Shown here: positions 4,733 through 54,938 of the stretch, one piece after another
Numbering within the stretch: position 1 is the first letter of the stretch
Layout: every line of letters begins with the position of its first letter
Origin: Leucoraja ocellata
Lineage: Eukaryota
Reading direction: 5' to 3'
DNA length: 64,000 bases
Assembly (NCBI GenBank): GCA_036785375.1
Contig: JAWMAR010000283.1
Location: 620,001 to 684,000 of the forward strand
Notes under the pieces: generated by a model
Database searches by the model: none
The model's input: the letters and a program-made list of their open reading frames with translations, nothing else
Told to the model about the DNA's origin: nothing
Translations under genes and position numbers: made by a program

Positions 4733-4816
4733 TCTCGACCCGAAAGTCACCCATTCCTTCTCTCCAGAGATACTGCCTGTGCCGCTGAGTTACTTCAGCT
4801 TTTTGTGTCGATCTTC
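4733..4816 (+). mobile_element. Penelope-derived short insert, 5'-truncated within the hammerhead motif
   Basis: TCTCGACCCGAAAGTCACCCATTCCTTCTCTCCAGAGATACTGCC...GAGTTACTTCAGC. Confidence 0.8.
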
Positions 4817-5500
4817 CAAAATTATTTCCCTGAATCAAAGCCTCCTAAGTGCAGTAATTTTGATTTTAAGTTTTTCACCTTTCTGTTCTTTTCTCCCCTC
4901 TGTTCAGTGAAATAGTGTTAATTACTCCCTAGATCAGGAGTGTTTTGGAAAAAAACAGATGTGCTCTTTTAAAAATGATTTTTACACAATAAGGTTCCTT
5001 GCTGTAAGACTGAGAATCTGCAAGCAGAACGGATGCTCCATTTCTTGCACAGCACAGATGAGATGCCATTTTTAGGATAAGGTAGTAAGCCAAACTGTGT
5101 GTCGGTTTGCTTGGGTGAATGTAAAATATCTGGGACATCAATTTTCTGACTCGCTCAAGTGTTTGTTTATGTGTCATTACCAAGATTGTGTTACTTGTTT
5201 GTCACAAACAGGATTCCAATACTGGCATTGTCATGCATGCAAACTATCTGAAACTATTTTTGTTCTATGTACAACAAATAACATAGTTATGGCTGTTTGT
5301 TGTATATCTAACAATGTGAAGATAAATAGTAATGAAAGATGGTCTCTACAGAAATTTGCGCTCATTTTGTATGCTGATAGTAGAATTTCATTGTCATATT
5401 GACACTTTTAAATTGCGTGAATTTATATCAGAGCTATCCAGCTAGCTAAGGACTGAAGAGAATGGCAGGGCATCATGAAGCAGATGGCACCACTCAACCC

Positions 5501-5670
5501 NNNNNNNNNNNNNNNNNNNNNNNNNNNNNNNNNNNNNNNNNNNNNNNNNNNNNNNNNNNNNNNNNNNNNNNNNNNNNNNNNNNNNNNNNNNNNNNNNNNN
5601 NNNNNNNNNNNNNNNNNNNNNNNNNNNNNNNNNNNNNNNNNNNNNNNNNNNNNNNNNNNNNNNNNNNNNN
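5501..5670. other. Assembly gap
   Basis: Run of N. Confidence 1.
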
Positions 5671-6219
5671 ATCCTAGCAGAGACATTTTGTGCATGATGT
5701 AATTGAATTTTACTATAGATTGGTCAAAAAATGTATTGGGGACCTTATAGTGCGAATTATGAACATTTAAAGTCCAAGTGAAGTGGAATTAGTTTCTATA
5801 CATGCAATAAACAGTCACAAGGTGGGCTGCACTTGAAAATAAATCTGAACTTCAGAGATGGTGGGAGTTGAATGCCTGATTACTTGCACCATTTCCTCCA
5901 AGTGACTGACCATGACTTGGTTGTAGATTGTCAATTCCCTTCCAGTTATTTGCCACCTTCTTTTGTTTAGGTGCTAGATGAGTCTCATAGACTGTGTGTA
6001 CGTGATCTCTTATTGTAGTTAAATAGTTCTGTGTGTATGTATTGGTTTGCAATGTCTCTATGTAGTGATGCATATGTTGGCTTGTGAGATTTATTCCAGA
6101 AATGCTGAACATGCTGCAAAGTCATTAAACTTTTTGTGGCTTTAGGACCAAGATATTGGGTCTTTGCTGCAGGCATTGATCTTTCTGGTTATTTCACTAA
6201 ATAAGCTCCGAATTGCATA

Positions 6220-6386
6220 GACTTGGCGGCATTATTTTTTTGTCATGGCACTATTATTGTTTTTTTAAATATATCTACTGAACTATTTTGTTTTTTGTGC
6301 TTTACAGAGTACTATGTTTACATATCTGTGGAGCTGTTGTAAGTAAGAATTTCATTATTTACATTTTTTGGATATATGACAATAAA
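6220..6386 (+). mobile_element. Non-LTR retrotransposon 3' tail (Rex1/Babar-like)
   Basis: GTAAGTAAGAATTTCATT...ATGACAATAAA; resembles the reverse complement of 58912-58991. Confidence 0.5.
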
Positions 6387-6689
6387 TATCATATATATTT
6401 ATTGTCTCTCACTCTTGGCTGTTTCCTCCCCCCTTCTCCCCCCCCTCCCGCAGCATATAGAAACCCTTGGATGCCATCTCAGAGGATATCAGGATTAGTG
6501 AGAGTGGATGCAATGTCTGCTCCCTATTGTTAATTCAAGTGATCTCTAAATAGAGTTGTTGGAATCTCTGAGGACGTCCTTTTCTCAGAGGTACAGGCAT
6601 GACCTCGGTTACCTGCTGATTGGTTTCAGCTGTCTTGAAGGACTTCTGAAATATTCATAGTTAATATGTTTCAGTGGGGAGAACGTCCA

Positions 6690-6990
6690 TGCAGACGGCT
6701 GTGGATGCCAAGTCATTGGATATTTTTTAATGCGGAGGTTGACAAATACCTGATTGGTAAGAGTCTCAAGAGTTATGGGGAGAGGCAGGATAATGGAGTT
6801 GAAGGGGAAACTTAGATCAGCCACAAATGAATGGTGGAGCAGACTGAAGAAGGGTCTCGACCCGAAACATCACCAATTCCTTCCCTCCATAGATGCTGTC
6901 TCACCCGCTGAGTTTCTCTAGCATTTTTTGTCTACCGATGGAGTAGACTCGATGGGCCAAATGGCCTAACACTGCTCCTATCTTATGAAC
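6690..6990 (+). mobile_element. CR1 LINE 3' end, interrupted by a Penelope-derived insert
   Basis: GGCTGTGGATGCCAAGTCATTGGATATTTTTTAATGCGGAGGTTGAC...GAATGGTGGAGCAGACT/CGATGGGCCAAATGGCCT...GCTCCTAT; typical CR1 ORF2 end and 3' UTR. Confidence 0.8.
6844..6936 (+). mobile_element. Penelope-derived short insert with hammerhead motif
   Basis: CTGAAGAAGGGTCTCGACCCGAAACATCACC; TSD TGGAG(C/T)AGACT at 6835-6845 and 6939-6949. Confidence 0.85.
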
Positions 6991-8353
6991 ATGAATATTG
7001 CACACTATTGGCAGAGAGACAAAGCAGCACAGGTTCCCTGCTGAGCATCTTCATGGAAGTTTCTGCATGTGAATGAATTTCTAGGCCCAATATTATCTCA
7101 GGCACAGCAATGTCTGTACAGACTGAAGGCCAGGACCGAGGCTGAGACCAACATTGTTCTGCAACCTGATGACAACCCCTCCTCCCACACGCACACCTCG
7201 GCTTGGTCATTTTGCTTCCTTCTCACTCAATCGTAACAGACTGTTGTCATTCAGGAAGTCAACTACCTTCACATTCATTGAAGTCCGCAATCATTCTTAA
7301 TAACAACAGAGTGACAATTGGTAGGTGACTTCCACACCTGCATCAAGTGATGGAGGTGCTACTCACTTCATAAGGGATTAAATTATTTAAAAAGCACTTA
7401 ATCCTGTGAATGCAGATGGATTGTGTCAGAATCCAGGAACTATTACAATAATTATCGCAAACTCATAACCCATGTCTCTATGGCAATGATTTAAAGTAGA
7501 TCGTCTAGTGAAAACAATGAAGCAAAATAATCAGCTGCAAAAAAAATCTAACTTGTTCACAAATGCTCAGAGGCAAAATATTTGATACATCTATTTGGGA
7601 CAGATTTGAAGTTGGTAAGATTTCAATCAAAAATTAAACAAACATATGAATGCCTGTTAATACACCAACCACATCCTTTCACTAATATGTAAATATATAT
7701 TTTTTTATTTTTGGCCAAGATGAATGAGAAATAGATTTTTTTTCCTCACAAATAATTGCTTTTATAGATTTAATGATAGCAATTTATTAATAACATCAAA
7801 ACTTACTATCACGTGAGCTTTATCATCAATGCATATAATCATCTTTAATTGAAAATAATCTGCAGGATTAATATTAATACATGAAAGAAATCAACTAGAC
7901 AACTGTGGGATTCTCAAATTAAATAACATATACGGGAAATTCTTCATGATGGAAGTTCATTGACCTGAAATGTTAACTGCTTTTCTTTCTGTTCTCTGAA
8001 CTACTATTTCCAGCATTTTTTTGTTTATATTTTAAGCATTCCAAAGCATGTTTCTTTCACATTTAACAAGACTTCTCTGACCGACTCCAGACTGGAAGCA
8101 TTGAAACTTGGAAATAATTAAAGGAACAGACTACTCGTGCAGCGAGTTGTGTATTGCATACTCCTACCCATCAAGAGTCTGATAATCTGGAAAGGCATAA
8201 AGCCAGATTTTATCAGCAAAGAATATTAGGCAGATTGGAGGGGAAATTTTTTTTTATCTGACTACTTTTGGTGACTAAAGCAAGTCAGTGATTCCTGCTT
8301 TGTTATTGAGTCAATGGACCATTGTGGGTTCCACATTTACTTGATTATTGTTG

Positions 8354-8526
8354 CTTTCTGCATATCTTCCATCCATTGTCCTAAGCACTGTATATATCTC
8401 TTGTTCCCCTTTCTCCTGACCCTCCGTCTGAAGAAGGGTCTCGATCTGAAACGTCACCTGTTCCTTTTTCCCCCCAGAGATGCTGCCTGACTCACTGAGT
8501 TACTCCAGTATTTTGTGTCTGTCTTC
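8354..8526 (+). mobile_element. Penelope-derived 3' terminal fragment
   Basis: Pyrimidine-rich leader, hammerhead motif, then GATGCTGCCTGACTCACTGAGTTACTCCAG. Confidence 0.85.
8426..8457 (+). ncRNA. Minimal type I hammerhead ribozyme motif (core intact)
   Basis: GT-CTGAAGA-A-GGGTC-TC-GATCT-GAAAC-GTC-AC: CUGANGA box, stem II, GAAA box, GUC cleavage triplet; activity untested. Confidence 0.65.
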
Positions 8527-9010
8527 ATGCATGAAATTGTTGTGTTTATGACAAGAAACGGGTTATTCGGAAGTAGTTTTACATTTCAATCATTTACTTT
8601 ACAATAATTGAATACAAATTTTATTGAGGATGGTCAACATAAAATTGTGATTGCACATGATGTTACAATTTGCTGCTGAAGATATTCTCTCAGCAAATAT
8701 TATGAAATATCTTCTGTTTTTAAACTCTAAGGTACCTCCAGCTGATTTTCTTGCTCTCTGTATTCACAAATAACAGTTGGTAATTCAGTTAAAAAAATGT
8801 TTTTGGATTATTCTTACAATTCTGAAAAATTAGATTTATGAGAAAATGGCTTTGTACAGTGCAATAGAAACTTAAAAAGGGACCCTGAAATATATTTATT
8901 GTGACATGAACAGACTGAAACTTAGTCCATGCAATGGTAATGGCCAAATTATTGAATTAATTGATTGGTTTATAATGTCACAGGCTCATTTTAGACATTT
9001 GAATTTGGAT

Positions 9011-9145
9011 TGTGTAGGAAAGAACTGCAGATGCTGGTTTAAATTGAAGGTAGACAAAAAATGCTGGAGTAACTCAGCAGGACAGGCAGCATCTCTGGAG
9101 AGAAGGAATGGGTGACATTTCGGGTCGAGACCCTTCTTCAGACTG
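9011..9145 (-). mobile_element. Penelope-derived short insert with hammerhead motif
   Basis: Minus strand reads AGTCTGAAGAAGGGTCTCGACCCGAAATGTCACC...CAGCATCTGCAGTTCTTTCCTACACA; TSD ATTT(G/C)GATTGT at 9003-9013 and 9146-9156. Confidence 0.88.
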
Positions 9146-10314
9146 ATTTCGATTGTTTGAATCAATTGCATTTGATTTAGTGGGATTTATTTTTCTTCCT
9201 CAGTCGGGCACATATAGGCAGAAAAGTTAAAGATCAAATATACTCTACTGTTTATGTGTGTCCATTGGGATATTTGAAATGGGAATATATGGAGTGGTCT
9301 GTGGTGCCTTAAATGTTATCCACCAATGTGGCTGTAGTTGTTTCAATAGTTTCCCTTGATTACATGTGGGAATATTGTTTTGAAAAAAAATGTTTCAGAG
9401 GATTGAATTTCTGAATGGTTTTCTATATAGGATATTTGAATGAAGTATTTGCTGATTGATTAACATTTCTATGTGGTTTTTCGAGTTTGTTATGTATAAA
9501 TCTGACTCAATCGAGTAAGTAATAGATTAAACATTCATTAGCATTTTGTTTTTAAAATGCTGTTAATTTGAAGCAGCTCATGCATGTAAAATGTTTAGTG
9601 TTATTATATGTGGCAAGAATTGTCGTCCTCTTAATTAGTATCACATTTCAATCCCGTGTTTTATTTGAGAACAATTTAATACAATTATTTTTTTTAAGAA
9701 TCTGTCATTTACAACATATGATTATGAATATCCTATCATTGAGTAAAGCCTGCAACTGTAGGTAGAGTAAATGCTCATACCTTGGAATCCCCAGCTAAAT
9801 ATAAAACCAAAATTCCAATTCAATTGTAAGCCAAGCTAAGGTTTCCAAGTAATTTGTCATCATTACTTAAACAGCTCATTATTTATTGCATTCTCTTGGC
9901 CCAAAAGAGTTTTAATGGTAAATAATCTCTGAAAGTTTGGTAATGAATTTAGGATTCTTTCTCAGTGAGTTTTTGGACAAAGGAAGCCCTTGCATACATG
10001 AGTTATGGAAGACCTGATTTATTGAAATTCAACTTCAGGAATTTCTCCCATAAATCTTTGAAAACATTTTCAAGGTGGGAAAGTTATGGAATAGGGTCAG
10101 CAGCTACTTGCTTCAAAAAACTATTGTTCTTCAAAAATAACTGTTTGCAGGGGGAAATCATTAAAAGATTTACTTTAGAAACTGACATGGCAACCCCTTC
10201 TATTGACAATTGTAAAATACTTTATCAAACAATGTAACATCCATTAATACTTTAAGGTTATTGAAACTGGCCATTGGATGTGGGACATTCTAATTCAGAA
10301 ATGGAACTCCCAAT

Positions 10315-11890
10315 CAGTTTCCCTCTACTAACACTCTCCCTCTGCCTGGCGGAACTTGTCCTCACCCTCAACAACTTCTCTTTTGACTCCGCTCACTTAC
10401 TTCAAGTTAAATGTTTCGTCATGGTCACTCGCATGGGCACCAGCTATGCCTGCCTTTTTGTTAGTTACGTTGAACAGTCTTTGTTCCAAATGTACATTGA
10501 TACCATCCCCCAACTCTTTCTCCACTACATTGATGACTGCATTGGGGCTGCCGCCTGCACCCGTGCTGAACTTGTTGATTTCATTAACTTTACCACTAAT
10601 TTCCACTCTGCCCACAAATTCACAGACTAACTCTGGCATCTCTCTCATCTTTCTTGATTTCTCTGTCTCCATCACAACTGTCATTGACTACAAATCCACC
10701 TTCTCCCACAGTTATTGGACTACACGTCCTCCCACCCTGCCTCTTGCATAGATGCCATCCCCTATTCTCAATCTCTCTGTCCCCAACTACATCTGCTTCC
10801 AAGATTAGCCTTTTCTTTCTCGGACATCTGAGATGTCTTCTTTCTATAGTAAACGTGGTTTCCCTCCTGCTGTCGTAGTTGGATCACCTTAGCCGCATGT
10901 TATCTATCTCCCTCCTCCGCCACCCAGACTGAACAAGGATAGAGTTACCCTGCACCTGATCTTTTACCCCATCATTCTCAGCCATTTCCGGCACCTTCAA
11001 CCTGATCCCACCACCAGTCACGCCTTGCCATCCCCATCCCTTTCCACCTTCTGCATAGTATACTCCCTCCTCAACTCCTTGGTCCACTCATCCATTCCCT
11101 CCCAAGCCATCCCCTCTCCAGGTACTTTCCCCAGCAACCGGAGGAGATGGAATGCCTATCCCTCTACCCCCTCCCATGTATTCATCCAGTGACATCGGCC
11201 GTCCTTCCAGGTGAGACAGAGGTAAATGTGCACATCCTTAGACCTCATCTACTGCATTCAGTGTTCCCAATGTGGCCTCCTTTACATCAGCGAGACCCAG
11301 CGTAGATTATGTGACCCTTTTGCCGAACATTTGGGTCTGCAGAATTTCCCGGTTGCAAGCCATTTCCACTCCCCTTTCCATTCTCATAATGCCCTTGCTA
11401 TCCTCGGCCTCTTCTGTTGACACAGTAAGGCCACATACAAACTAGAGGAATAGCACCTCATATTCCGCTTTGATAGCTTACAACCTAATGGCATGGACAT
11501 TGAAATCTCCAATTTTTACAACCACCTCCCCCCCCCCACTTTTGCCCTCTTTTTCCTGTGCCCCACCTGAATCCCTCCCCCCGCCCCCCACACCTCCCCC
11601 AGTCCAGTTCCATCTATGTTCCTTTCTCTGCCTTCACAATTCGTGTCTCTTCTATCTGTATCTCACACTTTTTGTCTTTTAATATCTGGCCTTTGTCCAA
11701 TCCTCTACCAATCAAAAAAAACCCCCATCACCTATTACTTGTTTGACTTTTCCAGCTTTCTCCACGCACCCCCCCCCCCCCCCCCACCACCACCACAATT
11801 TGCATGAAGAATGGTCCCAACCTGAAATGTCGCCTTTCAATGTTCTCCATGGATACTGCCTGGCCCGCTGAGTTACTCCAGCACTTTTTT
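10315..11890 (+). mobile_element. Penelope-like retroelement, 5'-truncated and decayed (RT + GIY-YIG + 3' terminal repeat)
   Basis: Peptides LAELVLTLNNFSF..MGTSYACLF..FLHYIDD (PLE-type RT), FLDFSVS, CTSLDLIYCIQCSQCGLLYISETQRRL..FAEH..PVASHF (GIY-YIG); stops and frameshifts; decayed hammerhead repeat at 11803-11890. Confidence 0.92.
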
Positions 11891-14800: not shown

Positions 14801-16112
14801 GTACTTGTTGACCATTTCCATTTACTTTCATAATTAGTAAACTAAGAAAGCAACTTAATGTTGCATAAATAATCTTGGTTTATCATCCTATTACCACTTG
14901 ATTAAATCAAGGGGGTAATCACCAAATTTTGTTCTAATTGTTCATGTAAAAACTATATACCCTTTTTAAAACTAACTTTTTGAATCAAAAATAATCCAAA
15001 AATCTTGTGATCAATTCATCATGATTTTAATTAGTAAAAGTAGTCCATCATGTAGGGTTTCTGCATTTTCTTCAAAGCCAAATAGTTCCACAATATTGAT
15101 GTATTGAATAATATTTCCTATAACCAATTAAAAGTGGTGTTTCCGTTTTTGTGATCAACCTTGCGTGCTTGCACGGTTTATGTTTACTTTTAAAAAAAAG
15201 TTTCAACATGAACAACATGTGCTAATTTAGCTCAAATGGGAATTTTCCACAATTGTGTTAATGGTTGCTCTAAAATTAGCCCTGCATGCATTTAAACCCC
15301 GTTGAACATGAAGAAAGGAAGTCCATTAAATATCTACTCCTGATGTATTTCCTTTTTTAGATTTTTTTTTTTTTTTTTTAAATATTTACTTGTAATTTAA
15401 TCATTACAGCTTTACTGCTATTTCGCGGGGAATTTTATCTGAAAATGTCAGTGCTTTTTTTTGCTTTCCTTTCTCATTTGAGTTGACCTACCGTGCTTAC
15501 TGGAGTGTAATAGTGACGCACTGTGTTGTGTGCTGCGTGAAACATAGACTGTAGCTTTTCTGTGAAGCTTGTGAAGGAATGCTGTAACATAAACAAAGAA
15601 TGACACTGAATTGTATTTCTTCAATTGTTGCACCACGTTTTCAAGATCGCCGAGCAGTGAGATATCCTAATATGGAAGCATTGTGCAGTTCTTGGCGAGA
15701 AGCTTCACAGTTGTCCTAATTTGTCCTTGCAGAACTGCTGCTTGGGGAAACACAATGCCAATAGGAGCATCTGAGAGCAGTGAGAAGTAAATTGTGATCA
15801 CCGTCTTGGGATTAATAGAGAAACCGGTGTAAGATTGAGGAAGTTTTAAATTATTTATTTCACTGTTATATTGCTGGCTACAGTCTCATTTGCAAATTTA
15901 AAGTGATGTCAGGATTCTGGGAATGGAGTCCTCTTCCCGGATATAGAAAACTGTATCAATGACTTAGTGAATGCGAGGTTGAAGGTCAATGCCAATAACA
16001 CGTGAAGTAATAAAGTTTGCACAAGACTGGAGAAAACACAGGGTAAGTGAGGAAAGGCCCCAGATTCATAAAAAAAAGCGGAACAGATAAGTAAATAATA
16101 ACGTAATAACAA

Positions 16113-16200
16113 TGAGCTGCAGATGCTGGTTTACCAAAGAAAGACAAAAAATGCTGGAATAACTCAGCGGGTTAGGCAGCATCTCTGGAGAACATGGATG
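16113..16200 (-). mobile_element. Penelope-derived short insert (lacks the hammerhead part)
   Basis: CTGCAGATGCTGGTTTAC...TGCTGGAATAACTCAGCGGGTTAGGCAGCATCTCTGGAG. Confidence 0.8.
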
Positions 16201-19206: not shown

Positions 19207-19931
19207 GAAGGACACAAAGTGTTAGAGTAAAGGGCCTGTCCCATTTGTCTGTAATTTGCGAGTCACTTAAGCGACAGTCCGGTAGTGACTGTCACGTGAA
19301 AATCATCTAGCAGTACGACAGTCGCGTGCTTTTTTTCTTGAGGACTCTGCTACTTTTGGGACCCATTGCGATGTCGTTCGTACTGTACTGTTATTTTAGT
19401 CCGATCTCCGTGGCAAGGATTTTCCCAGTGAAAAAATTTCAGAACTCGGCGCGCTTTATACACGGGTGAGCATGTGGTGCGGCGCTCAAATGACGCGAAA
19501 ATGGTGCGCCAACGGCGTACGCGGCGACGCATGGTTACGGACGTTGACGCACGTGACGCATAATAAATTAGCATAGGCAATGTTTGTGCATCACCATGCG
19601 TAACCATGTGTCACCCTGCACTACACGCACGCCATCAGTACGTCAGCGTATGCCATCAGTACGTTAGCAAGGAATACGTCACGCAGGTGCCGCACGAGGA
19701 TTTTGAACATTCCAAAAACCTGGGGCGATAGGGAAGCATCGCGCATTACCACGGGTCACAGCATACGCCACCACGCCTCACCGCGCACCATGATGCGCCA
19801 ACCAATTTTTAGGATGTCGCATAAATGACTCACAAATGACGCCCAAGTGGGACAGGCCCTTAACTCAGCGGGTCAGGCAGCAACTCTGGAGAACAGGGAT
19901 AGGTTTCAGGTTGAGACCATTCTTCAGGCTG
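19207..19931 (-). mobile_element. Penelope-derived short insert split by a MITE
   Basis: GACACAAAGTGTTAGAGTAA | CTCAGCGGGTCAGGCAGC...CCATTCTTCAGGCT rejoins seamlessly when the MITE and one TAA are removed. Confidence 0.85.
19231..19860. mobile_element. Non-autonomous PIF/Harbinger-type DNA transposon (MITE), 630 bp
   Basis: TIR AGGGCCTGTCCCA(T/C)TTG, imperfect out to about 45 bp; TAA TSD at 19228-19230 and 19861-19863; CpG-rich, no transposase. Confidence 0.9.
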
Positions 19932-24401: not shown

Positions 24402-24746
24402 TGGTTAATTCTCATCTGGCCTCACTAATAATCCAACAAACTATTTAGTTGGGGGCGGGGGGGTGGAGGTAATCAAGAAAATGGACAATAAATGCTTCAA
24501 TTTCATATCCACTGGCTGAATAAATAAGAAAACAAAATCACCAACTTAATTTCAAATGTTCAAGCTTTTTGAAGCTTAAAACACTGCAAGGATTGCACAT
24601 GCCATTGGATTTTATTTTGCTGCTTGCAGCAGGAATTACATTCTTGTGTAAAATAAATAAATAAAACATACACTCGGATATAACAGCAGTTACAGGGCTA
24701 GCTTTTATTCATTATCATTGCACCATTATGTCTTTAGTACATTATG

Positions 24747-24880
24747 AGTCTGAGGAAGGGTCTCGACCTGAAACGTCACCCATCCCATCTCTCCAGAGAT
24801 GCTGCCTGTCCCGCTGAGTTACTCCAGATTTTTGTGCATATCTTCGGTTTAAACCAGCATCTGCAGTTACTTCTTACACA
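24747..24880 (+). mobile_element. Penelope-derived short insert in the Tc1 3' end
   Basis: Full unit AGTCTGAGGAAGGGTCTCGACCTGAAACGTCACC...CAGCATCTGCAGTTACTTCTTACACA flanked by TATG on both sides. Confidence 0.88.
24748..24779 (+). ncRNA. Minimal type I hammerhead ribozyme motif (core intact)
   Basis: GT-CTGAGGA-A-GGGTC-TC-GACCT-GAAAC-GTC-AC. Confidence 0.65.
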
Positions 24881-28490: not shown

Positions 28491-28828
28491 TCTTTAGACT
28501 TGAGATACAGTGTTGAAACAGGCCCTTCAGTGCATCAAGTCCACACCAACTAGCGATCACCCCGTAAGATAACACTAATGTGGATACTGCCTGAACTGCT
28601 GAGTTACTCCAGCAGTTTGTGTCTATCTTTTAGGATATTGTTTGTTTTAAAGAACAGAACCATTCATTTGATATGTGAGCAGAATGGTTTACAAGCTCAC
28701 TCCACATGCTAACTCACGTGAAATAGTTAGTCAGGGTAACCAAACTCACTGCAGACCGTGATCGGGATCAAAGCCGGGACACTGGCATTGTGAGGCAGCA
28801 ACTCTACCACTGCACCACTGTGTCGTCC
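28491..28828 (-). mobile_element. V-SINE (HE1-like) with its middle replaced by a Penelope-derived piece (28580-28630) and other sequence
   Basis: Tail at 28491-28577 (AAACAGGCCCTTC); tRNA head at 28745-28828 (GAGGCAGCAACTCTACCACTGCACCACTGTG). Confidence 0.7.
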
Positions 28829-34400: not shown

Positions 34401-34502
34401 AGTTTAAAGAAGGCTGGTTCTTAGATAGTCGGAACATGATTATTTTTTTTTCTCATTCAATTTCTGTACGTAGATTTCAAGGCAGTTTATTGCATTGTGA
34501 AA

Positions 34503-34725
34503 ATAGACACAAAAAGCTGGGGTAACTCAGTGGGCCAAGCAGCATCTCTGGAGAGGAATGAGGGAGGTTTCGGTTGGAGACCCTTCTTCAGACTGGTCTC
34601 CACCAGTTCAGACTCGCACCTGTCTGAAGAAGGGCCTCGACCCAAAACATCACCCAGACTAGTCTGAAAAAGGGTCTCGACCCGAAACGTCACCAATTCC
34701 TTCTCTGCAGAAATGCTGCCTGTCC
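34503..34725. mobile_element. Penelope-derived compound insert: one inverted plus two tandem hammerhead motifs
   Basis: Minus copy 34503-34594; plus-strand motifs 34622-34654 and 34662-34694. Confidence 0.85.
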
Positions 34726-35367: not shown

Positions 35368-35990
35368 GATTCAATTCTGGTCACCACACTTTAGGAAGGA
35401 TGTAAGAGCCCAAGAGAGAGTACAGGGAAGATCTGCTAAAGATCTCGTTCCAGGGATGTGGGAGCTTCAACTCTGATGTTAACCTGGTAAAACTAGGCTT
35501 GTTCTCCATTGAAGAAGAGGGTACAAGGAGATTTGATAGAGAATAAGAATATTACTGGGATAGAGATGGTAAAAAGAGTGAAATGCATTCCCTGCAGTGA
35601 ATGCTGCAAGAACCAGAGATACAAAACTAAAGTGTAGAGCAAAAAAAAAACCCAACATGGAGGTGAAGAGCAAGCTTCTAATTCTGAGTATTTAAGAAGG
35701 AACTGCAGATGCTGGAAAATCGAAGGTACACAAAAAAGCTGGAGAAACTCAGCGGGTGCAGCGGCATCTATGGAGCGAAGGAAATAGGCAACTTTTAGGG
35801 CCGAAACCCTTCTTCAGACTAATTCTGAATAGTTCTGATATAGAACTTATTGCCTGGAATCTTGCTTCTCCAACGGGAATGAGTAAGCACTAGGAGGAAA
35901 ATTAGTTCCAGGGCCATGGGGAATGAGATGGGGATTGGATTCCTTTACAAAGAGCCACCATGAGCCAGATGGGCCAAATGTCCTTAACTA
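35368..35990 (+). mobile_element. CR1 3' fragment with nested Penelope insert
   Basis: CAATTCTGGTCACCACACTTTAGGAAGGATGT (QFWSPHFRKDV), GGCTTGTTCTCC, GATGGGCCAAATG tail. Confidence 0.78.
35694..35820 (-). mobile_element. Penelope-derived short insert with hammerhead motif
   Basis: Minus strand AGTCTGAAGAAGGGTTTCGGCCCTAAAAGTTGCC; TSD CTAATTCTGA(G/A)TA at 35678-35690 and 35819-35831. Confidence 0.85.
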
Positions 35991-43514: not shown

Positions 43515-43818
43515 TAAATGATCCATTTTTAAGTATCAAAGAAAATTTCACGATGGTGACGGCAGAGTAAGTCTGATAATGCAGATACATGTTGCTGTAT
43601 AATGTTACATCAGACAAAGGGTTTAAATCAATTCTTAAAAGCAAGAGGAATGGGTCTTACAAATAAATCAGTGCATGTTTCACTCAATGTCACAGTTGGT
43701 GTAGATTCTTTGCTTTTGTATAACTAAAGTGATCATAACGAGGGATATATTTGATTATTGTTCTAAATACCATGCTGCATTCCTAACTGTCATAACTGGT
43801 CAAACTTAAAAGCTGGAT

Positions 43819-43943
43819 ACAAGGAACTGCAGATGCTAGTTTATTTTAAAAATGACACAAAGTGTTGGATTAACTCAGCAGGTCAGGCAGTATCTCTGGT
43901 GAACATGGATAGGTGATGTTTTGGGTCGGGTTCTTTCTTCAGA
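43819..43943 (-). mobile_element. Penelope-derived short insert
   Basis: GGAACTGCAGATGCT..TAACTCAGCAGGTCAGGCAG..GGTGATGTTTTGGGTCGGGTTCTTTCTTCAGA. Confidence 0.82.
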
Positions 43944-45990
43944 AGCTATTTTAAAGCTATTTACTCATTAGCAAATGTACCTTCATTATGAAGTATATAA
44001 TATTTGACCTTTATTATGTTTATCTACTGATATAGTTTAATTAATTATTAAAATATATTCTACAGTTTCATGAATTCTTCAGTTTTGTGTAAAACTTAAG
44101 TGCATGGTAAGTCTTTTCTATGATATGCAACTGAAAATAATTGTGCAATAGTTTTCAGGCCATTGGTGATTTTGTTAATCTCATGTAAGGAAGATATGGG
44201 CCAGAGGTGGTCAGCTATTATGCAGCTGGGTAAGGGGTCTAAACTCAACCATGATATGTACTGCTTAATGCTATCTGGAAATCTCTCATGAATTTACATG
44301 TGAGAACATCCAGTGAGGATAGGATTACATTTTGAGCTGTGAAGCCCTGCAGAGGCTATTATGCCACATGCATTCACTTATAAAGCATTTATTTATACCC
44401 ATGACGTGGATGCATTGGCAAAACCAGCATTTGTTGCCCATCTCATTGACTTCAATGGCACCGAATGTGAAGAGGTGAGTATGACTAAGCTGGGAATCTT
44501 ACATGCATTTAGCACCAAGGAACAAAGAAGAACTTTTCTTTTGTGGGGAATAAGTTGGATTTCTCATCATTCACACAAGGCATCTACTTCCAAAACTTAT
44601 CAGGATTCATCCTTTGATTCATTTCACCTAGATTCCCCTGCACCAGTTCCTCTTGGATAGCTACCTCCACATTGCACTCAGTAGTATTTATTTGTCCTGT
44701 TCCAGCTAGGTAACCTGGCCTTTTCAAGGCCGGGACCACAACACAGTTGACAGCAGGGTTCTATTAGTCCGCACTTGCTCTATTTTATTAATGATGGGTC
44801 CCGCTATTCAATGCTGAAGGACTTTCCCATGTACTTAGAATCAAAACTGTCAATTGTCTTTAATATTTTATCTTCTTCCATTCCAGCTACATGGTATGCC
44901 CATTTGATGTGTCTACTACACACTGTAGTTTAAAATGGGATTCTTTTGTCCCACTCGTGCACCATCTCGTTAGTGATGCAGCCCTGCTATTTGCCACTCA
45001 AGATCCTTCTCAAGTCCTTAGTATCAAAGCTGTCAATCTATAATATTCAGTTAGAGTCCAATTCCCTGTTCCACATTTCCCCACCAACAGTAGCACAGTC
45101 GTGGAAAAATCACAATGTGTTTCCGTCTGTAATACAGAATAAACAACCATTTGAAGACTACAATTTAAGGATATAGTGATAGCACCTCCCATCGTCGCAA
45201 ATGGACAAATAAAAAATCTAATTATAAAAAGCTAACTTTTCTCTTTAAGAATAGATTTTATTTCCTCGGTGCAATCTTGTTTCTAATTGTTACAGTGCAG
45301 CTTTTTTTAATTCACGTATTTTATTTGTGTTTTGCTCAATTTCTTTCAGTTTCATGTATAACATACAATTTCACACGCCAACAAATTTAGAGCTTGCCAA
45401 ACCTAAAGGGTTCAGAATGCTAGTGCACACTTTCAATAATTTTTCTTTTACTTGCCAACTCAATGCAAAAGGTCAGGGAAATCTACACTAAGCATTAAAC
45501 CCCAAACCACATACTGAGAGCTTTCCTCCCAGGTCAACATTACTAGTTTTTGCTGACTCTGTTGGTGAATGCAGGGTCTTTACATTTACTCTGTGCGTTA
45601 CAAGTTATTTTTCCATGTTGAATATCTAATTTTCTCAGAAACCTATGACTGAATTTGCCATTTATAGTGATTAAAATGAGTTGTTCAGTCAGAGAAATAG
45701 ATATTTTTATTAAAATTGCTTAGTTCTTGTGAGAAATACAATTTCAGTTATATTCATAGAATTTTACCAGGAGACTTCCACTTATGAAGACATCAACAAC
45801 TGCTTTTGTCAAGAAGAAAGAATAATTACTAGTATTCAAATGTGCTATGAGATTAAGTTTATTGGAGATTTTAAATTGAGGTTTTGGCAATTTGAATTAT
45901 ATTCCGATCACTATGATTTCGGGTACACTTTTCGGATAAACCCTCTATCCCAATATATTGAGCTACGAATTAGCACATTTTGCAGAATCT

Positions 45991-46068: not shown

Positions 46069-46530
46069 AAGGTCAAAACTTTTCTTGTTGGGCTGCAGGT
46101 CTTTCATCAAAAAATGATCAAGTTTTGAGTTGTATTTCTGCTCATTTTGTTTTCATATGAAGGAATTTGATGCCATTTTTCTACAGTGTTCTCCAGCCAA
46201 GAGGCATTGCACCTGTTAATGCTTATAGTGTATGTATCATTACCTAATGTGTTCACATTTGTCCAAAGTCATGTGTCTTATGACCTTTCCTCTGTGTGGC
46301 AAAATCTTGACCTTCCAAAGAGGAACCCAAGAACAAGAACTTGCCGATCGTGCATCTTCAGTATGCTGACAAAACAGCTACATAGAAAGGGAAAAAGGGA
46401 AAAAGAAAACTCTAGCTGTTAGCTAGAGTTCAAAGGTAGAATAGTGACAGATTATAAAGCACAAATAAGGATGGTAGATGGACAAATGAAATGCTAAGAT
46501 TTCTCAAGACTCTCTGGATGTTAACCCTTT

Positions 46531-46629
46531 CAGTCTGAAGAAGGGTCTCGACCTGAAACATCTGCCATTCCTCCTCTACTGAGATGCTACCTGTCCCCCA
46601 GAGTTACTCCAGCATTTTGCGTCTATCTC
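46531..46629 (+). mobile_element. Penelope-derived short insert with decayed hammerhead motif
   Basis: CAGTCTGAAGAAGGGTCTCGACCTGAAACATCT..GAGTTACTCCAGCATTTTG. Confidence 0.85.
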
Positions 46630-47229: not shown

Positions 47230-47340
47230 GGGCTGGCAGCTCAGTCACTCAGGCCTGGTGGGCTAGCAGCTCAGTCACTCTGACCTGGTGGGCTGGCAGC
47301 TCAGTCATTCAGGGCTGGTGGGCTGGCAGTTCACTCACAG
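47230..47340. repeat. Minisatellite, 30-bp unit x about 4
   Basis: TGGGCTGGCAGCTCAGTCACTCAGGCCTGG. Confidence 0.95.
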
Positions 47341-47356
47341 CTATTCCTTGAAATCC

Positions 47357-47621
47357 CATTTCAAGCAGAGTACAGGCCACCAATTCCAAATGCAATTTCA
47401 TACCATTTCAAGCAGAGTGCAGGCTACCAAATCCAAATGCAATTTCAAGCAGAGTGCAGGCCACCAAATCCAAATGCAATTTCATACCATTTTAAGCCGA
47501 GTGCAGGCCACCAAATCCAAATGCATTTTCATACCATTTCAAGCAGAGTGCAGGCCACCAAACCAAAATCAATTTCATACCATTTCAAGCAGAGTGGAGG
47601 TCAAAATGCAATTTCATACCA
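47357..47621. repeat. Minisatellite, about 47-bp unit x about 6
   Basis: CATTTCAAGCAGAGTGCAGGCCACCAAATCCAAATGCAATTTCATAC. Confidence 0.95.
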
Positions 47622-48290
47622 TCTGGGCTTCATACTCCTGGCCCTCCCAGAAGGGGTGTTATCTTTATTATGGCGATTGACAGGCGAGAGGACCAATCAG
47701 CTGATCTCAAGATTTTTTAAACATTCATAACTTTTTTAATTTTCATCGATCAATAAAATCCTCGGGTCTGCTGCAGCAGAGGAGAACTGCGAGTAAGATG
47801 ACCAAAATTCATAGTGATATATATGGTAGCATATTTTCTTTAGTGATATATAGCATTTAGCAGTTTAGCATTTCCAAACCAAAGGCAACACAGCTTTAAC
47901 ATTTCCAAACTATGTTTCAATCCACATTAAGGGCACTGACAGGTCAGTAAAACCACTCACAGTTTAGTAGACATGTGTTCAGTGTTATTCACAGCTCAGA
48001 CTGAGAGACGTAACCCTCTCGATCCCCCATTTTGCAGAGGCTGACTGAGGCATAACACTTGCAGGTTTTATAGTCCCTCCGGAAAGGGCATGGCTTTCAG
48101 GAGAGAGAATCTCAACATTTTTTAAACACTAATAACTTTTATTTTCTGAGTAAGATGGCCAAATCAATATACATAACAACAGGAAGTGGCCAAGATCAGA
48201 CTTCTAGTTATATATATATAACACACACTAGACTAAGTGGGACCCGCTGTGTCCCAGCTTCACATGGGAGGGCTGGTCCGCCAATTCCAC

Positions 48291-48836: not shown

Positions 48837-48839
48837 ACT

Positions 48840-48945
48840 TCCGCAATCAGCGTGACCTCTGCACTTACCGGAAATTACGCAATCAGCATGACATCTGCAC
48901 TCTTTGGAAATGACGCAATCAGCGCAACCTGTCCACTAAGCGGAA
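48840..48945. repeat. Minisatellite, about 36-bp unit x3
   Basis: CGCAATCAGCGTGACCTCTGCACTTACCGGAAATTA. Confidence 0.85.
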
Positions 48946-48973
48946 GTCACGAAATGGGCGGGACTTTTGGACT

Positions 48974-49106
48974 AAACACAGTCGGACCTAATAAAGCATT
49001 TATTCCTTCCAAACACAGTTGGACCTAATAAAGCATTTATTCCTTCCAAGCCCAGACAGACATAATAAATCATTTATTCCTTCCGAACACAGTCGGACCT
49101 AATAAA
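48974..49106. repeat. Minisatellite, 37-bp unit x about 3.5
   Basis: AACACAGTCGGACCTAATAAAGCATTTATTCCTTCCA. Confidence 0.92.
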
Positions 49107-52100
49107 TTGCAGTTTCAAGCACAGGAGGGGCAGCAGGCCAAACAACTCATGGCATTGTCATTTCATTTCATTTCATTTCCAATTAAGCATTGCACTTTCA
49201 AGCACAGGCAGGGCTGCAGGCCAAACAACTCATGGCATTCTCATTAAGGGCTAACAAAACATTTATTGCAAGTGCATTACAGACTCGCAGTTCTGTTGAT
49301 TCACAGCTTAAAATAGCAGTCGTGGCCTCTCCCTCGCGATCTTGCAGAGTGACTGACTCACGTCCAGACATCCGGGGTTTTATAGTCCTGCCCCCCTCTC
49401 AGGAAGGGGCGTTACCTTCATCGCGGTGATTGACAGGTGAGAGGACCATTCAGCTCATCTCAAGGTTTTTTAAACACTCATAACTTTTTAATTTTTCATC
49501 GATGGGAAAAATCCTCAGGGCTGGCTCAGCGAAAGAGGACTGTGAGTAAGATGGCCAAAAATCACAGTGATAAAGGGCAGCGTTTTTTCTAAAATCAATA
49601 TACAGCGCAGACAGGAAGTGGTCAAGATGAGACTTTTAATTATATAGATATATGCATGTATGTATATATGTATGTATATGTGTGTGTGTACTTCCCAGTA
49701 ATGCCACTGTAAGGGTTCAAGGTTTTCAAAAAATATCCTTGAATAACACACAGACAAATCTTCACAAAGCAACATGTAATCATTTTGTGGCTCCAGTCCT
49801 TCCTCATTTTAAAATGCAGAATGTTATACTTTTTTTCTCTGTAGCATTTATTTCTAGCTAACAATATTTTCTCTTTGGGTAATTTGTGAGCACCGGCTAC
49901 TTCAGGAGTGGCAATTTGATAGCTGTGGCACAGGATAATGTATGCTGTGGCCACTGAAAGCAGGAAATGCTTGTCCTCGTTAATATGAGGTTTTGCATCT
50001 CACTAACTATTATTTCAAAATGACTATGTATGGTAATAATAAATCAACCACATGGCTGTAATTTGCTGGAAAAACAGAAAAAGGGGATTTAAAGATTCTT
50101 GTCCCTTTCAAGGTAATAGCATGAAACTGGCTCAAATAAGATAGAATGCATGAAATAAGGATACTCCTCAACATCGGTCTGGCCCCTGCAGTAATTTCTC
50201 GCTTCAGTGTGCCATCTATTTGTTCAGCTCAGTACAACAGAATTTGTTCAAAACTTCTGGATGGGAAAGTATGAAAATCACACTTGGGTGAAGGACAAGC
50301 TTAAATAAACCTGACTCAGTGTCCATTTGAACACCTGTTATTACCAAGGTAAAATGAGGATGCTATTTTAAAATTATGTGCTTCATGTAACCCATTTGTA
50401 AGTTTAATTTAGGTTACAAATTCATCATGCACATGAAGGGCGAGTTTAAATACAGTATACTCGGTGCCAACTCAAACGTTGTTTTTTTAACCAAGGAAAA
50501 GTAGGGATATTATTTTAAAAGGACAGTCATTGAATGCAACACATTTGTATGGTCAGAATATATGTTGTAGCTTTTCACAAATTTGAAAACGTATAAATGA
50601 TCTTGTATCATTACATCAAAAATGCCATGATTTAGTAAAAGCTAGATCGGACAGAACATGAAAACTTTGACTTGTCCACTGATATTTGACCGCTTTCTTT
50701 GGCCTGAAAGCCTTTATTTCAATAAAGAGTTTCACTGCTTTTAGCTCAAAGGTTTCAAACATTATTTGCCATTCCCCTGGCATTTGTTGGAAAGGGTTAA
50801 TGTCCCGAGAATTCCGGTGTGTGTATTTTTCTGATGGGTTGACTGGCTGTAGAAAAATCACCATGTGACTCGAACAGCACTGTAGAATGAAACCCAAATT
50901 AACTTCAGCACCTTGGGGAGATATCAGAGGGTCTTCAGCATTACATGCTGTACTGACAAGCACCACTTAAGCCAGCCTAGGATTCCCAAACAAGTATTTA
51001 ATCTCCTCATTAAAGATATATGAAGCTGGAAATCGATGTGCACATCAACCATTCTATTGCTGGTTAGAATCTTTTTTTTTCTGGTCTAACTTATTGCACC
51101 TCTCTAACCTTAGAGATTTTGTTTGGGATGGAGGTTTATGGCATTTCTGGAATGTATTTTCAAAGTATAGCAATTGCACTGAAGATATTTTCTTCGACAT
51201 TGAGCCTATGAAAAAGTATCTGATGCATTAGTTCATATGTTTTTTAAAGATACTACTGGAGCTGTCTTTTGAACCATTACTTCCCTGTAAATACCAACAA
51301 ATTATTTTCATTTCATAGTAAAATATATCAATATGATTTTAAGATTCATGTCGACTGATTTTTAATACTTTTTGGTGGTTCTTTGTACAATTTAACATTT
51401 TGTCTCCACTTTAAGAAGTAAGAATGAGCTTGCCTGGGCATTATTTTCCCACAAACAGTGTCTGTCTCTATAAGCTATTTTTAATATAATCACAATGGAG
51501 ATGCCTCATTCCTGGGACATACTTTATTTGCCATCTTAAGTCCCTGCACTGTCTTGATGAATTTACACAGTACATCACCCTTGGTTGTTGCCCCAGGCAT
51601 GAAACAACTTCTAAATTAGTACAGGGCTATGTTTACCTTATGGACATCTTGTAGAATGCGAAAAAACTGTAAACTGAATGGCCTTGACGTTAGGACTGAG
51701 TCCCACCAGTTGGAGCTTGTTAGGATTTGCAGGAAAGGATAGTTTTCTGAACTGCAATATTATCTTCTCCTCGGAAATGTGATTGGCATTGGGGGTCGAG
51801 GGAAATTGTGAACATTGTAAACGAAGACTGTTTCTGGAACATAATATACAAGTGATCATTAGGAATGGACGTTTGAATTTCCATAGGGGAATTGAAAGTT
51901 CCAATGAGCAAGAATAACTTTACTTTTGAGATGCCCTTTGCCCTTTCAAAAGCAACAGTGCAGTTTGCTCAGCATGCTTTGTTTTCAGACATCCAACTTG
52001 ATGGCAACTTTTAGAATTATATTCCCTCAATAATATTTTTACTTCCTGATGTTTACTCAATACGTGGATGGATTACAGGTTCATAAAAGCTCTTGTCCCT

Positions 52101-52265: not shown

Positions 52266-52467
52266 ATGTGAAGAAGGTAACTGCAGGTGCTGGTTTATAC
52301 CAAAGATAGACACAAAGTGCTGGAGTAACTCAGTGGGTCAGGCAGCATATCTGGAGAAAAAGAATAGGTGACGCTTTGGGTTAGAACCATTCTTCAGACC
52401 ACTTCAGATCCTTTTCTCCAGAGATGCTGCCTGACCTGCTGCGCTCCTCCAGCATCTTGTGTCTATC
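52266..52467. mobile_element. Penelope-derived fold-back insert
   Basis: Minus copy 52270-52399 then plus copy 52409-52467; TSD CCCTTT(T/C)CCTTA at 52253-52264 and 52468-52479. Confidence 0.85.
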
Positions 52468-53287
52468 CCCTTTCCCTTACCCAAGAGAACTATTTTAAAT
52501 AAAGAAGGCTTCCACAAACGCAGACATTGAAGGCAACAAATTTTGAAGAGTTGGGAATTAAACTAAAGCCCTGCATGAATTGAAGTTGCCATTTAAAGTA
52601 TCAACAAACTGCATTATTTGCACAAATGAGTTTGAGACATCACTGACTTTTTTTTGAGTGACATTTTTGTGACTGGAGAAATTATTTTAATATTTGTCAA
52701 ACATGAATCATTTTTGTACCCTGGACATGAAAAACTGAAGGTTGTAAAATATATTCAGTAATTGTTTTGAGACTTTTGTAAATTGGAAAAAGAATATTGC
52801 AGAAGGTTGCAATTGTGTTGAATTACTTCAATGTTTGAACTTAGAATAGTTCAGTGTCAACCGTTTCCTTTGACGGGAACATGGTTGGGGTCTGCCAGGC
52901 TTGTAAGTCGGTAGTTAGTAAATACTCATGGTATTATTAGTGCTCTTTTTGACATCCATCGTTGTTACTCTGAAGATGATGTTGCTCCAGCTCTTTCCCC
53001 CTTACCCATGTTTACGCATTGCAAGCTCGACTCACTGCTTTATCCTTCCAATGTAAAGCTGCCATTTTGCTTTTGTCCTAATAGCTGATTGTTACCTGAT
53101 GTACATTCATGAGATGGAAACCTTACTGTCAGCATAGCATTGTACCCTGTCCAGCTTTCTAAGCACGTCTGCACAACCAAACGCAAATTTAACCTTAGGA
53201 GAATGCCCATTGGATGTCGATTCTCACCCAAGAATGAAATTATTTAAAAAAATTGGCAGGTGTTGCAATCAAATATTGTAATTCAAG

Positions 53288-53588
53288 AACATAGAACGGT
53301 ACAGTACAGCAACGGGCTCTTTGGCCTACAATGTTTGTGCTGAATATGATGTTTAGCTGAACTTTCATTTGCCTGCAAATGATCCATATCCCTCTATTCT
53401 CTGCACTTACATGCGCCTATCCAAAAGCTTCTTAAACGCCACTATCGCATCTGCCTCCACCACCCCCCTGGCAGTGATTTCCAAGCCCCCACCACCATCA
53501 GTGTTTACAAAAAACCATTCACCCTCTCACTCTATAACCATGCCCTATAGTGTTGGACATTTCCACACTGGGAAAAAGGTTCTGGCTG
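53288..53588 (-). mobile_element. CR1 3' end
   Basis: AACATAGAAC..GATCCATATCCCTC..TTAAACGCCACTATCGCATCTGCCTCCACCACC; reverse complement resembles 33380-33470. Confidence 0.82.
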
Positions 53589-53591
53589 CCT

Positions 53592-53830
53592 TTTTGTTAT
53601 TGTCCTGTGGACCGAGATACAGTGAAAAGCTTTTGATTATATATTATCCAGTCTGATATTATATATGAATACATTCAACTCAAACTCATTCATTCATGCA
53701 TTAATTCATCTATTCATACACGTCAACAGGTAGTCCACAGAGCAAAATACCAGAGTGCAGTGTTGGAGCATTTCAGTTATAGAGAAAGTGCAGATATAAA
53801 AGGTGCTAGGCCACAATGAGACAGGTTGGA
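53592..53830 (-). mobile_element. Rex1/Babar-like 3' tail
   Basis: TTATTGTCCTGTGGACCGAGATACAGTGAAAAGCTTTTG; reverse complement resembles 62070-62110. Confidence 0.65.
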
Positions 53831-54012
53831 TGATTGGGACTACACCCTAGTGAGGCATCAAGATGTTGGAGTAAATATTGCAGAGGACCTAGGCATGTTG
53901 TTAAGTTGTCTAATGTGTGTGCAGCATACAAAGGACTATGGAATAGAGAGACAACCCCCTCCCCCTCCCCCTCCCCCTCCCCCTCCCTCCCCCCCCACCC
54001 CCCCTCCTCCCA

Positions 54013-54626
54013 AGGGTACTTCTTTCAGTGTTCACAATGTGATCTCCTAGATGTTGGGGTACTAAACCCAGATGAAGTGAACATTTTATGGAGCGCATGC
54101 AGGAGGAGCCTGAGCTTCCCATTTCCTACAACTTCCATTCCCGCACCCCATTCTCAGTCTGACCTGCCTCTCTGTGGCCTCCTGATATCTTGGGCCTTGC
54201 AAGCTATTCAAAGAACATTTTATCTTCCATCAGTGCTGATTGCAGCCTCGGAGATTATGGAGTTGGCCAACTTTTACTCATTCGTCCTTTTTTACAGTAT
54301 CACAACTGGCCATTTCTGCCTGTTATCATTTTGGCTTAGATTTTTTTCTTTTTTGTATATAGACTAGCCTGCTGGGTACGACCACAGATACATCATGAGC
54401 AGCACATTACGCAGACCGAGATGATTAATATGATTTTATCTACCACACAGTCTTCTCCCCTCAGAGATGATCACTCTGTTCTATTAATCCCACCCCAACC
54501 TTCTCTGCCTCCCAAAAAATAATTTATTTTCTCTCTTTCCTAGTTATGAAATGTTAAATGTTTCACTTTTCATAGATGCTACCTGAATTGCTGAGTTTAT
54601 TTCAGATTTCTAGCATCTGCAGTTTT
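54013..54626 (+). mobile_element. Old Penelope-like fragment (GIY-YIG remnant and terminal repeat)
   Basis: YFFQCSQCDLLDVG; CATTCTCAGTCTGACCTGCCTCTCTGTGGCCTCCT parallels 11379-11415; ends GAAATGTTAA..GATGCTACCTGA..AGCATCTGCAG. Confidence 0.7.
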
Positions 54627-54765
54627 TAAATATTTTACCCTGCTTATTCACAGTGCTGTATTGGAGAGGTACCTGGCTAGAAGCCATTTATTTCCTCTTG
54701 GAGGCAGGGAAACATAATGCTACTACCTTCCAGTCAGTAATGAGATGAAGGGGCAGGATTACAAT

Positions 54766-54938
54766 CTTCGAAAAATCATTTTAGACTGGAGTAATTCAGT
54801 AGGTTAGGGAGCATCTCTGGATAACATGGTTAGGGGAAGTTTCATGTCAGGACCCTTCTACAGACTGATTTAGTTGAGTTATTCCAGCATTTTGTGTCTA
54901 TCCTTGGTAAACCAGCATCTACAGTTCCTTGTTCCTAT
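54766..54938. mobile_element. Penelope-derived fold-back insert
   Basis: Minus piece 54787-54867 then plus piece 54875-54938; perfect TSD AGGATTACAAT at 54755-54765 and 54939-54949. Confidence 0.85.

Follow-up and report, generated by a model that had tools for sequence, protein, structure and literature searches.

Why should copy after copy of a short repeat begin a few nucleotides before the first conserved box of the ribozyme motif that it carries? The question is raised by a 64,000-nt stretch of the Leucoraja ocellata genome (assembly GCA_036785375.1, contig JAWMAR010000283.1, positions 620,001 to 684,000, forward strand; hereafter the window), in which an initial annotation had listed 14 dispersed copies of a unit built around a minimal hammerhead, had placed the 5' boundary of many of them close to the CUGA box, and had proposed that they form a non-autonomous family resembling short interspersed elements (SINEs). 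We find that the boundary is real, that the unit almost certainly consists of the pseudo-long terminal repeat (pLTR) and tail of a Penelope-like element (PLE), young and of Neptune type, and that the short copies are probably, as the best overall explanation, stumps of that element's RNA.

The edge before the CUGA box

A profile built from the window copies themselves recovered 21 fragments of the hammerhead repeat in the window, all 14 earlier positions included, and a second profile gave 278 matches in 664 kb (made up of the window itself, 120 kb flanking it and 48 stretches of 10 kb placed arbitrarily, so that the sample is not strictly random) against none on the reversed sequence; the dispersed family is thus confirmed. 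Density in this sample is about 0.42 fragments per kb, which extrapolates, with the same reservation about randomness, to about 1.4 million fragments in the 3.44-Gb assembly. Exact cores number 34,079 genome-wide, 12,191 of a variant with CUCG loop and GUC cleavage site and 21,888 of one with UUCG and GUU, and neither has a match in genome-wide reversed-sequence controls. Boundaries were scored in an enlarged sample of 1.264 Mb holding 862 matches, 600 kb of it chosen around exact copies; for unbiased counts these copies were set aside, leaving 792.

Among the unbiased copies, 414 reach the CUGA box with enough flank to be classified: the upstream neighbour is an inverted partner in 143 and a direct one in 24, untranslated region (UTR) of the element is retained in 101, by a threshold set above the null maximum of 10.5, and 146 lack it. 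The 5' ends of 146 of the 247 non-inverted copies therefore lie within a few bases of the box, and truncation per base is 0.072 at this wall, 0.0097 inside the unit and 0.0069 upstream, a 7-10x excess which shows that the recurring boundary first noticed in the window is not random. Counted back from the box, the wall spans -1 to -5 and template bases fade between -3 and -5: in 165 short copies the template is matched at T-1 in 0.76, G-2 in 0.70, A-3 in 0.61 and C-4 in 0.39, reaching background from -6, and of the 12,191 exact CUCG/GUC cores 2,763 lack A-3, a further 2,383 lack C-4 and 5,605 keep TCA.

Target-site duplications (TSDs) adjoin this edge. They lie no more than 12 nt from the wall in 20 of 150 short copies, against 0 of 300 in the null, and 27 of 41 young non-inverted copies (55 distinct of 60 loci, 14 inverted ones set aside, selected for a non-template base at -3 or -4) have a TSD of at least 9 bases, 26 of these within 17 nt of the wall. 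Solo stumps that carry TSDs are direct insertions rather than relics of recombination. Purines make up 70% of the junction fillers, and in 7 of 16 fillers the opening bases of the template (GAAG...) recur, which would be expected of a reverse transcriptase (RT) slipping at a template end.

At the other end the copies stop in two groups about 35 nt apart (model columns ~91-105 and 127-136), in agreement with a PLE tail of 30-40 nt and with the pair of internal sites at which RT starts in PMC11167929. The 862 matches include 135 head-to-head pairs, 22 tail-to-tail pairs and 39 tandem adjacencies. Where both ends of a head-to-head pair could be scored (98), 77 join a long to a short 3' end, 12 are long-long and 9 short-short, and 29 of the 98 have a TSD score of at least 10, against 1 of 300 in the null. 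Long+short pairing is the PLE tail signature (PMC8557442) and, judged by PMC11167929, would fit two RT start sites on opposite target strands.

Two observations concern the ends of particular copies. One locus (L127:1140-1443 and 8836-9049) holds tandem arrays of a 66-bp sub-unit (model columns 25-91) without CUGA box, which may be the source of a small 5' peak at column 25. Several young stumps (L279, L281, L283, L320) are inserted at the same spot in a second repeat family, with TSDs that begin CAGGT, which suggests a preferred target. This second family (D2, D5, D7, D9, D16) is itself dispersed in the window, at 24168-24402, 31259-31961, 33782-34399, 41547-41803, 42699-42973 and 59465-59891, and we take it to resemble the V-SINE/HE1 type of sharks and rays.

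The parent element and its hammerhead

The unit had been reported to end a Penelope element at 10315-11890, and so it does: translated RT and GIY-YIG remnants, 56% and 48% identical by tblastn to the 1163-aa open frame of the family, are followed by the unit, and a 12-nt repeat with 1 mismatch flanks the whole. Pfam gave no match on the two window fragments. A genome search with the RT piece of this element returned many long frames, and at 18 of 20 loci chosen because they hold long PLE frames the unit either overlaps the frame or begins about 116 nt beyond its printed end; at the other two (L132, L140) it is at least ~200 nt away or the long frame is on the opposite strand. The 1163-aa frame comprises RT, a C-x4-C-x2-C linker and, at its C-terminal end, a GIY-YIG endonuclease (EN), with weak matches to RVT_1 (E=2.9e-6) and GIY-YIG (E=0.01), both just below the Pfam curated cut-offs; on its two sides lie an inverted pLTR and a target duplication of 16 nt (L128). 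At tandem loci UTR, hammerhead and tail lead straight into the 5' end of the open reading frame (ORF), the ATG lying about 40 nt past the tail; this leader layout recurs in many of the 30 loci that hold the 5' part of the ORF, and L167 begins at the CUGA box itself. Since the unit stands both after the stop codon of RT/GIY-YIG frames and before the next ORF, it is the element's 3' end and 5' leader. Tandem pLTR junctions, inverted pLTR, two classes of 3' end and long+short pairs complete the PLE architecture. The linker of the 1163-aa frame fits the Neptune-type pattern (C-x2-5-C-x2-C between RT and EN), from which the clade label would follow; Nematis has a zinc-finger-like linker of the same pattern (PMC8557442).

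Some loci deserve separate mention. L002 (G000:C36) is 95% identical over its full length to the window element at 10315-11900, which otherwise is ~70%-diverged, suggesting a segmental duplicate or second haplotype of this region. L149-L153 are five near-identical loci with a CUCG-type head-to-head stump fused to the tail and ORF start of a UUCG-type element, a chimeric leader amplified together with its flanks. Bystander long frames at L132, L135 and L145 resemble, by eye, proteins of LTR retrotransposons and tyrosine-recombinase elements.

The motif is, as first described, a Penelope-type minimal type I hammerhead: helix III is a loop-less palindromic ACGU and stem I is 2 bp (pairing 0.68 and 0.73, then 0.18 and 0.27), so that it would need a partner. 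Stem II, drawn longer in the first consensus, proved to be 4 bp, closed by a tetraloop of CUCG or UUCG; one more pair would leave a loop of 2 nt. Both young variants have CUGANGA, the extra base, G10.1-C11.1, GAAA, palindromic helix III and GUC or GUU sites. Only one-sided U-A/U-G swaps in stems I and II distinguish the two main variants, and double changes are rare (A-U in 9 of 342 copies at the first stem II pair); a lack of stem II covariation, which the initial annotation had named as a refutation of its reading, is thus partly borne out, as no two-sided change separates these variants. A descriptor for loop-less hammerheads gave 190 matches, against 2 in shuffled DNA, with only single examples of a second hammerhead family with a different stem II among the 190. 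The suggested Rfam scoring gave 3 matches at E<=1, no hammerhead family among them.

CpG positions vary at about 20% and most other core positions at about 5-10%, so that most variants do come from CpG decay, as had been supposed; the catalytic core has no extra protection, its bases decaying like their neighbours, and the copies decay neutrally. A permissive core test, with G-U allowed, is passed by 43 of 342 ungapped copies and by 2 of the 14 window copies. The cores at 8426 and 24747/24748, described as intact, are so only if G-U wobble is accepted; both have G-U at G10.1-C11.1. The hammerhead that ends the 10315-11890 element is itself broken. Folding predictions do not make the hammerhead shape the ground state: the stem II pair probability in context is 0-0.14, and the active-like dimers, at -4.2 and -10.2 kcal/mol against dimer minima of -22.7 and -27.2, lie 17-19 kcal/mol above them. 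A separate 8-bp stem is predicted only when the long tail is present. Such an unfavoured active fold fits the protein-assisted cleavage of PMC11167929.

The copies in the window are as follows.

10315..11890, plus strand: 5'-truncated, broken Penelope-like element that retains remnants of RT and GIY-YIG, a 3' UTR rich in pyrimidines, a decayed hammerhead (about 11805) and a short-type 3' end (from tblastn, translation and flanking repeat).
24744..24880, plus strand: best-preserved short copy, with GAGT-CUGA box at 24750, stem II, GAAA-CGUC-AC, 3' domain and long tail; its core passes the permissive test, with G-U at the stem II base.
8354..8526, plus strand: copy in which about 70 nt of the element's 3' UTR survive; its core, at 8426, has two G-U pairs in stem II.
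9011..9146, minus strand: short, long-tailed copy in which helix III is mutated (AUGU), flanked by an 11-nt repeat with 1 mismatch.
35692..35823, minus strand: short UUCG/GUU-variant copy starting at AGT-CUGA, 13-nt TSD with 1 mismatch.
6841..6937, plus strand: short copy whose 3' end is short and whose helix III is mutated (ACAU), flanked by an 11-nt repeat with 1 mismatch.
52266..52468, unstranded: head-to-head pair of long-tail minus arm and short plus arm, 12-nt TSD with 1 mismatch.
54766..54934, unstranded: head-to-head pair, core broken, 13-nt TSD with 1 mismatch.
34500..34725, unstranded: cluster of one minus copy head-to-head with two tandem plus cores, every core broken.
19207..19931, minus strand: copy split by a later insertion of about 630 bp (~19231-19860).
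43812..43944, minus strand: older short copy with long tail, core broken.
46528..46628, plus strand: short copy, helix III broken.
4733..4817, plus strand: copy starting within stem II, without CUGA box.
16107..16200, minus strand: 3' domain and tail only, without hammerhead core.
28583..28630, plus strand: 3' fragment absent from the earlier list.
3106-3171 and 54571-54623: further 3' fragments absent from that list.

The edge near CUGA is therefore not shared by every copy listed at the outset: those at 4733 and 16107 lack the box, and those with cores at 8426 and 11805 retain upstream element sequence. The piece at 19207 is the split-off 3' end of the 19861-19931 copy, and the insertion between them has terminal inverted repeats beginning AGGGCCTGTCCCA and a TAA duplication; presumably it is a miniature inverted-repeat transposable element of PIF/Harbinger type. 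Elsewhere in the window (47336-47603, 48842-49106, 47650-47819 and 49403-49572) there are short tandem arrays (47, 36 and 37 bp units) between two 170-bp direct repeats. A crude exon scan for a host gene found nothing convincing.

Formation of the short copies

That the short copies are stumps of element RNA could be explained by where that RNA begins, and we lean, by a little, towards such a start-site mechanism. The wall coincides with TCAGTC, which we take to match the initiator consensus; the element transcript would start at its A (-3), inside the pLTR. RT would then start at one of two sites within the RNA leader, by internal priming as in the Anolis carolinensis Poseidon element (Frangieh et al. 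2024, PMC11167929), and would likely run off the RNA 5' end just before the CUGA box, leaving an inserted stump; a protein dimer priming both target strands would give the long+short head-to-head pairs. The hammerhead would cleave only as a dimer with help from protein, and these copies would not need it to. A transcript from A-3 with internal priming would give exactly these stumps and would account for the 2-bp stem I. PLE promoters do lie within the pLTR (PMC2377424, PMC6765202). Counted from the A of TCAGTC, 4 of 5 positions of the downstream promoter element (DPE) match, and 8-9 of 12 positions of the motif ten element (MTE) do so at +18 to +29 (chance 0.005-0.023; MTE consensus from PMC8384218); both matches are post hoc.

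A tentative and rather doubtful extension is that the hammerhead doubles as an RNA polymerase II core promoter, made up of the TCAGTC initiator and of MTE- and DPE-like bases that underlie stem II, GAAA and the ACGT palindrome. If the extension were true, the million-odd stumps would be a genome-wide, base-resolution record of transcription start and of two RT start sites, each stump would be a full promoter-plus-priming cassette that could be copied again, and an RNA start three bases before CUGA would be reason enough for the 2-bp stem I.

RNA was mapped from three runs of two studies, at 88% likeness, to one young junction, with 13,596-22,490 reads each. Of these, 75-95% continue into unrelated sequence, depth peaks across the GUC cut site, and of the loose ends listed upstream for the oligo-dT run the only one near the wall falls at A-3 (852 reads). 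The single-cell runs show a strand bias of about 4-5 to 1.

Several points weigh against the start-site account. The RNA reads showed no start or end pile-up at the junction, no site where many molecules begin, in runs that may come from species related to that of the window and in libraries dominated by read-through and unsuited to start mapping. The MTE/DPE match, besides being post hoc, is partly forced by the GAAA of the hammerhead. In D. virilis an intron separates the hammerhead from a start some 120 nt upstream of it (PMC2377424, PMC4209133), so that a start-at-hammerhead layout is not universal. At -4, short copies with a base other than C show no clear copied-cap G (33 of 101, p=0.08, not significant, so that this candidate was dropped), and T is depleted (18 of 101, p=7e-5), which plain truncation does not predict and the purine-rich fillers may explain. 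Where the base at -3 is other than A it is often G (64 in the first 100 cases listed, by an eye count), which can also be produced by A-to-G transitions and by GTC microhomology at inverted joints. Old copies whose type of UTR was outside the sample could be misfiled as short, and the young copies used for TSDs were chosen on their 5' base.

That cleavage defines the unit, or that dispersed copies are functional cleavage sites in host pre-mRNA, is in our view highly improbable. There are 34,079 exact young cores, minimal hammerhead dimers cleave weakly in vitro (PMC4209133), and the ribozyme of the anole element cleaves with protein (PMC11167929). The 5' ends, however, do not pile up at the five cut-site columns (25 of 792, against 13 and 31 in the flanking five-column bins), nor do RNA ends at the GUC site, where the initial annotation had proposed to look for them, and ends defined by cleavage are thereby ruled out. 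The neutral decay of the core, the few copies that pass the permissive test and the predicted cost of the active-like dimer tell against function, and so does the common arrangement of neighbours on opposite strands, which puts only one sense core in each transcript.

If the wall were instead a splice acceptor (a polypyrimidine tract and YAG|UCUGA), a host or element exon would be spliced onto the hammerhead. In long copies a stretch rich in pyrimidines does run up to a YAG (C 0.78, T 0.11 at -4), and the -4 to -2 profile of short copies resembles the exon-end consensus. The D. virilis intron ends at hammerhead helix I (PMC4209133). TSDs, however, mostly adjoin the wall (26 of 27 within 17 nt; 20 of 29 within 12 nt), leaving no room for an exon and largely ruling out host-exon splicing as its cause, and no splice-type skip was seen among the 15 RNA joints shown of 100; we think a splice acceptor very unlikely. 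Separately, the element 3' UTR at L175:1127-1245 has at the ORF stop a GTTAGT that resembles a donor, then a long run of pyrimidines, and a CAG directly in front of the hammerhead; it is possibly an intron of about 115 nt like that of the D. virilis pLTR; the same 15 joints contain no spliced joint for an intron of this type.

The wall could also be an RT stop or template-switch hot spot, at a folded or protein-bound hammerhead or at the near-palindrome TCAG(T/A)CTGA, on RNA that extends further upstream. Many head-to-head joints fall at this near-palindrome or at the stem II palindrome, palindromes at pLTR 5' ends have been suggested to self-prime on an antisense template (PMC3846280), and 101 of the 247 non-inverted copies extend past the wall. 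Solo copies whose TSD adjoins the wall need no partner arm, however; the hammerhead is not the predicted ground state; and the wall lies some 10 nt beyond stem II, in sequence predicted to be weakly paired. We regard this as unlikely, though as a live rival.

There remains the SINE-like family of the initial annotation, or a retrozyme-like one, in which the short unit would propagate itself from its own internal promoter and be mobilised in trans by the PLE protein. Both the putative promoter and the sites where RT starts would lie within the unit; the solo copies are insertions flanked by TSDs, a SINE-like trait equally expected of stumps from autonomous RNA; and a preprint derives animal retrozymes from PLE pLTRs (10.64898/2026.07.22.740005). 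Yet in 232 copies (133 short, 99 long) nearest neighbours share a label at 0.531 against 0.509 when shuffled (p=0.12), short and long copies have subfamilies in common (91/63, 11/13, 18/18), all five motif classes contain both, and the largest class shows no majority difference between the two. The tree, like the concordance of low resolution (97 columns), has 65 label changes against 74.9 shuffled, with 2 of 500 shuffles as low, and 12 of 14 copies on one branch are short: a mild clustering that goes against the stump account, and that near-duplicate loci and misfiled old copies may explain. Such interleaving does not support a separate SINE lineage. Adjacent tandem copies are few (39 among 862 matches, beside the 135 head-to-head pairs) and no boundary falls at the cut site, so that in these two traits the unit does not fit a non-LTR retrozyme; 0.75-0.95 of RNA reads run into unrelated flanks, and no common 3' read-through sequence was noticed in short copies. 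A self-propagating unit is accordingly quite improbable, and stumps of element RNA remain the explanation we prefer, with occasional re-copying of stumps a thing that may happen.

Comparison with known systems

A loop-less hammerhead that requires a partner is not new: it was defined as the minimal hammerhead ribozyme (min-HHR) in the pLTRs of metazoan PLEs, including fish Xena, Poseidon and Neptune (Cervera and De la Pena 2014, PMC4209133). Our motif shares with it the missing helix III loop, palindromic 15.2-16.2, the extra base between 9 and 10.1, G10.1-C11.1, the pLTR location, mostly single dispersed copies, opposite-strand pairs and the predicted dimer requirement. Its stems II and I are 4 and 2 bp, unlike the 7-8 and 4-5 bp of the schistosome min-HHR, 2 bp being found also in D. 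virilis, and copies are put at about 1.4 million by our extrapolation, as against thousands in PMC4209133; two supplement files of that paper contain no shark or ray term. In genomes of this sort a descriptor scan will return 'ribozymes' in very large numbers, most of them neutral debris.

A close parallel in mechanism is the anole Poseidon (PMC11167929), which likewise has a hammerhead at the pLTR-ORF junction, extension of both target strands, two RT start sites 30-40 nt apart giving an optional tail, insertion that needs no cleavage, and an absence of RNA reads that end at the cut site. In Poseidon the ORF begins within the hammerhead, and reverse transcription is initiated inside that ORF; in our element the ATG is beyond the tail, which makes the unit non-coding, and the protein has a Neptune/Nematis-type zinc linker, unlike that of Poseidon. 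The 5' wall is not described in the available parts of PMC11167929.

In anatomy the family agrees with EN+ PLEs (PMC8557442, PMC3846280): partial tandems, inverted 5'-truncated pLTRs, a tail at one end, solo pLTRs, and TSDs of 8-10 bp or longer. It departs from the generic picture in that solo and paired stumps of ~95-135 nt dominate. The role of the PLE hammerhead and the origin of tails and of inverted and solo pLTRs are described as open questions (PMC8557442, PMC11167929). What is new beyond the cited literature is the quantified wall and a candidate explanation for it, the element end family itself being ordinary; we found no literature on this family or on a start site at a hammerhead edge, in a search that had Repbase and Dfam outside it. 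With large numbers of genomic copies, and in a second PLE clade, the family supports the use of two internal RT start sites, one for each target strand, as well as insertion from RNA that is uncleaved, and it yields a sharp prediction for the element's transcription start.

Animal non-LTR retrozymes (PMC7229834; bioRxiv 10.64898/2026.07.22.740005) are also short and non-coding, with a type I hammerhead and kinship to PLE pLTRs, but are defined as tandem repeats with a hammerhead in each unit, whereas our copies are mostly solo or head-to-head and do not start at the cut site. A precedent for such a putative dual role is Pr77/L1TcRz of Trypanosoma cruzi L1Tc (PMC3383444), where one short 5' sequence serves as internal promoter and ribozyme; that ribozyme is of hepatitis delta virus (HDV)-like type, in a long interspersed element (LINE), and its function was shown, while ours is a hammerhead in a PLE with a putative promoter.

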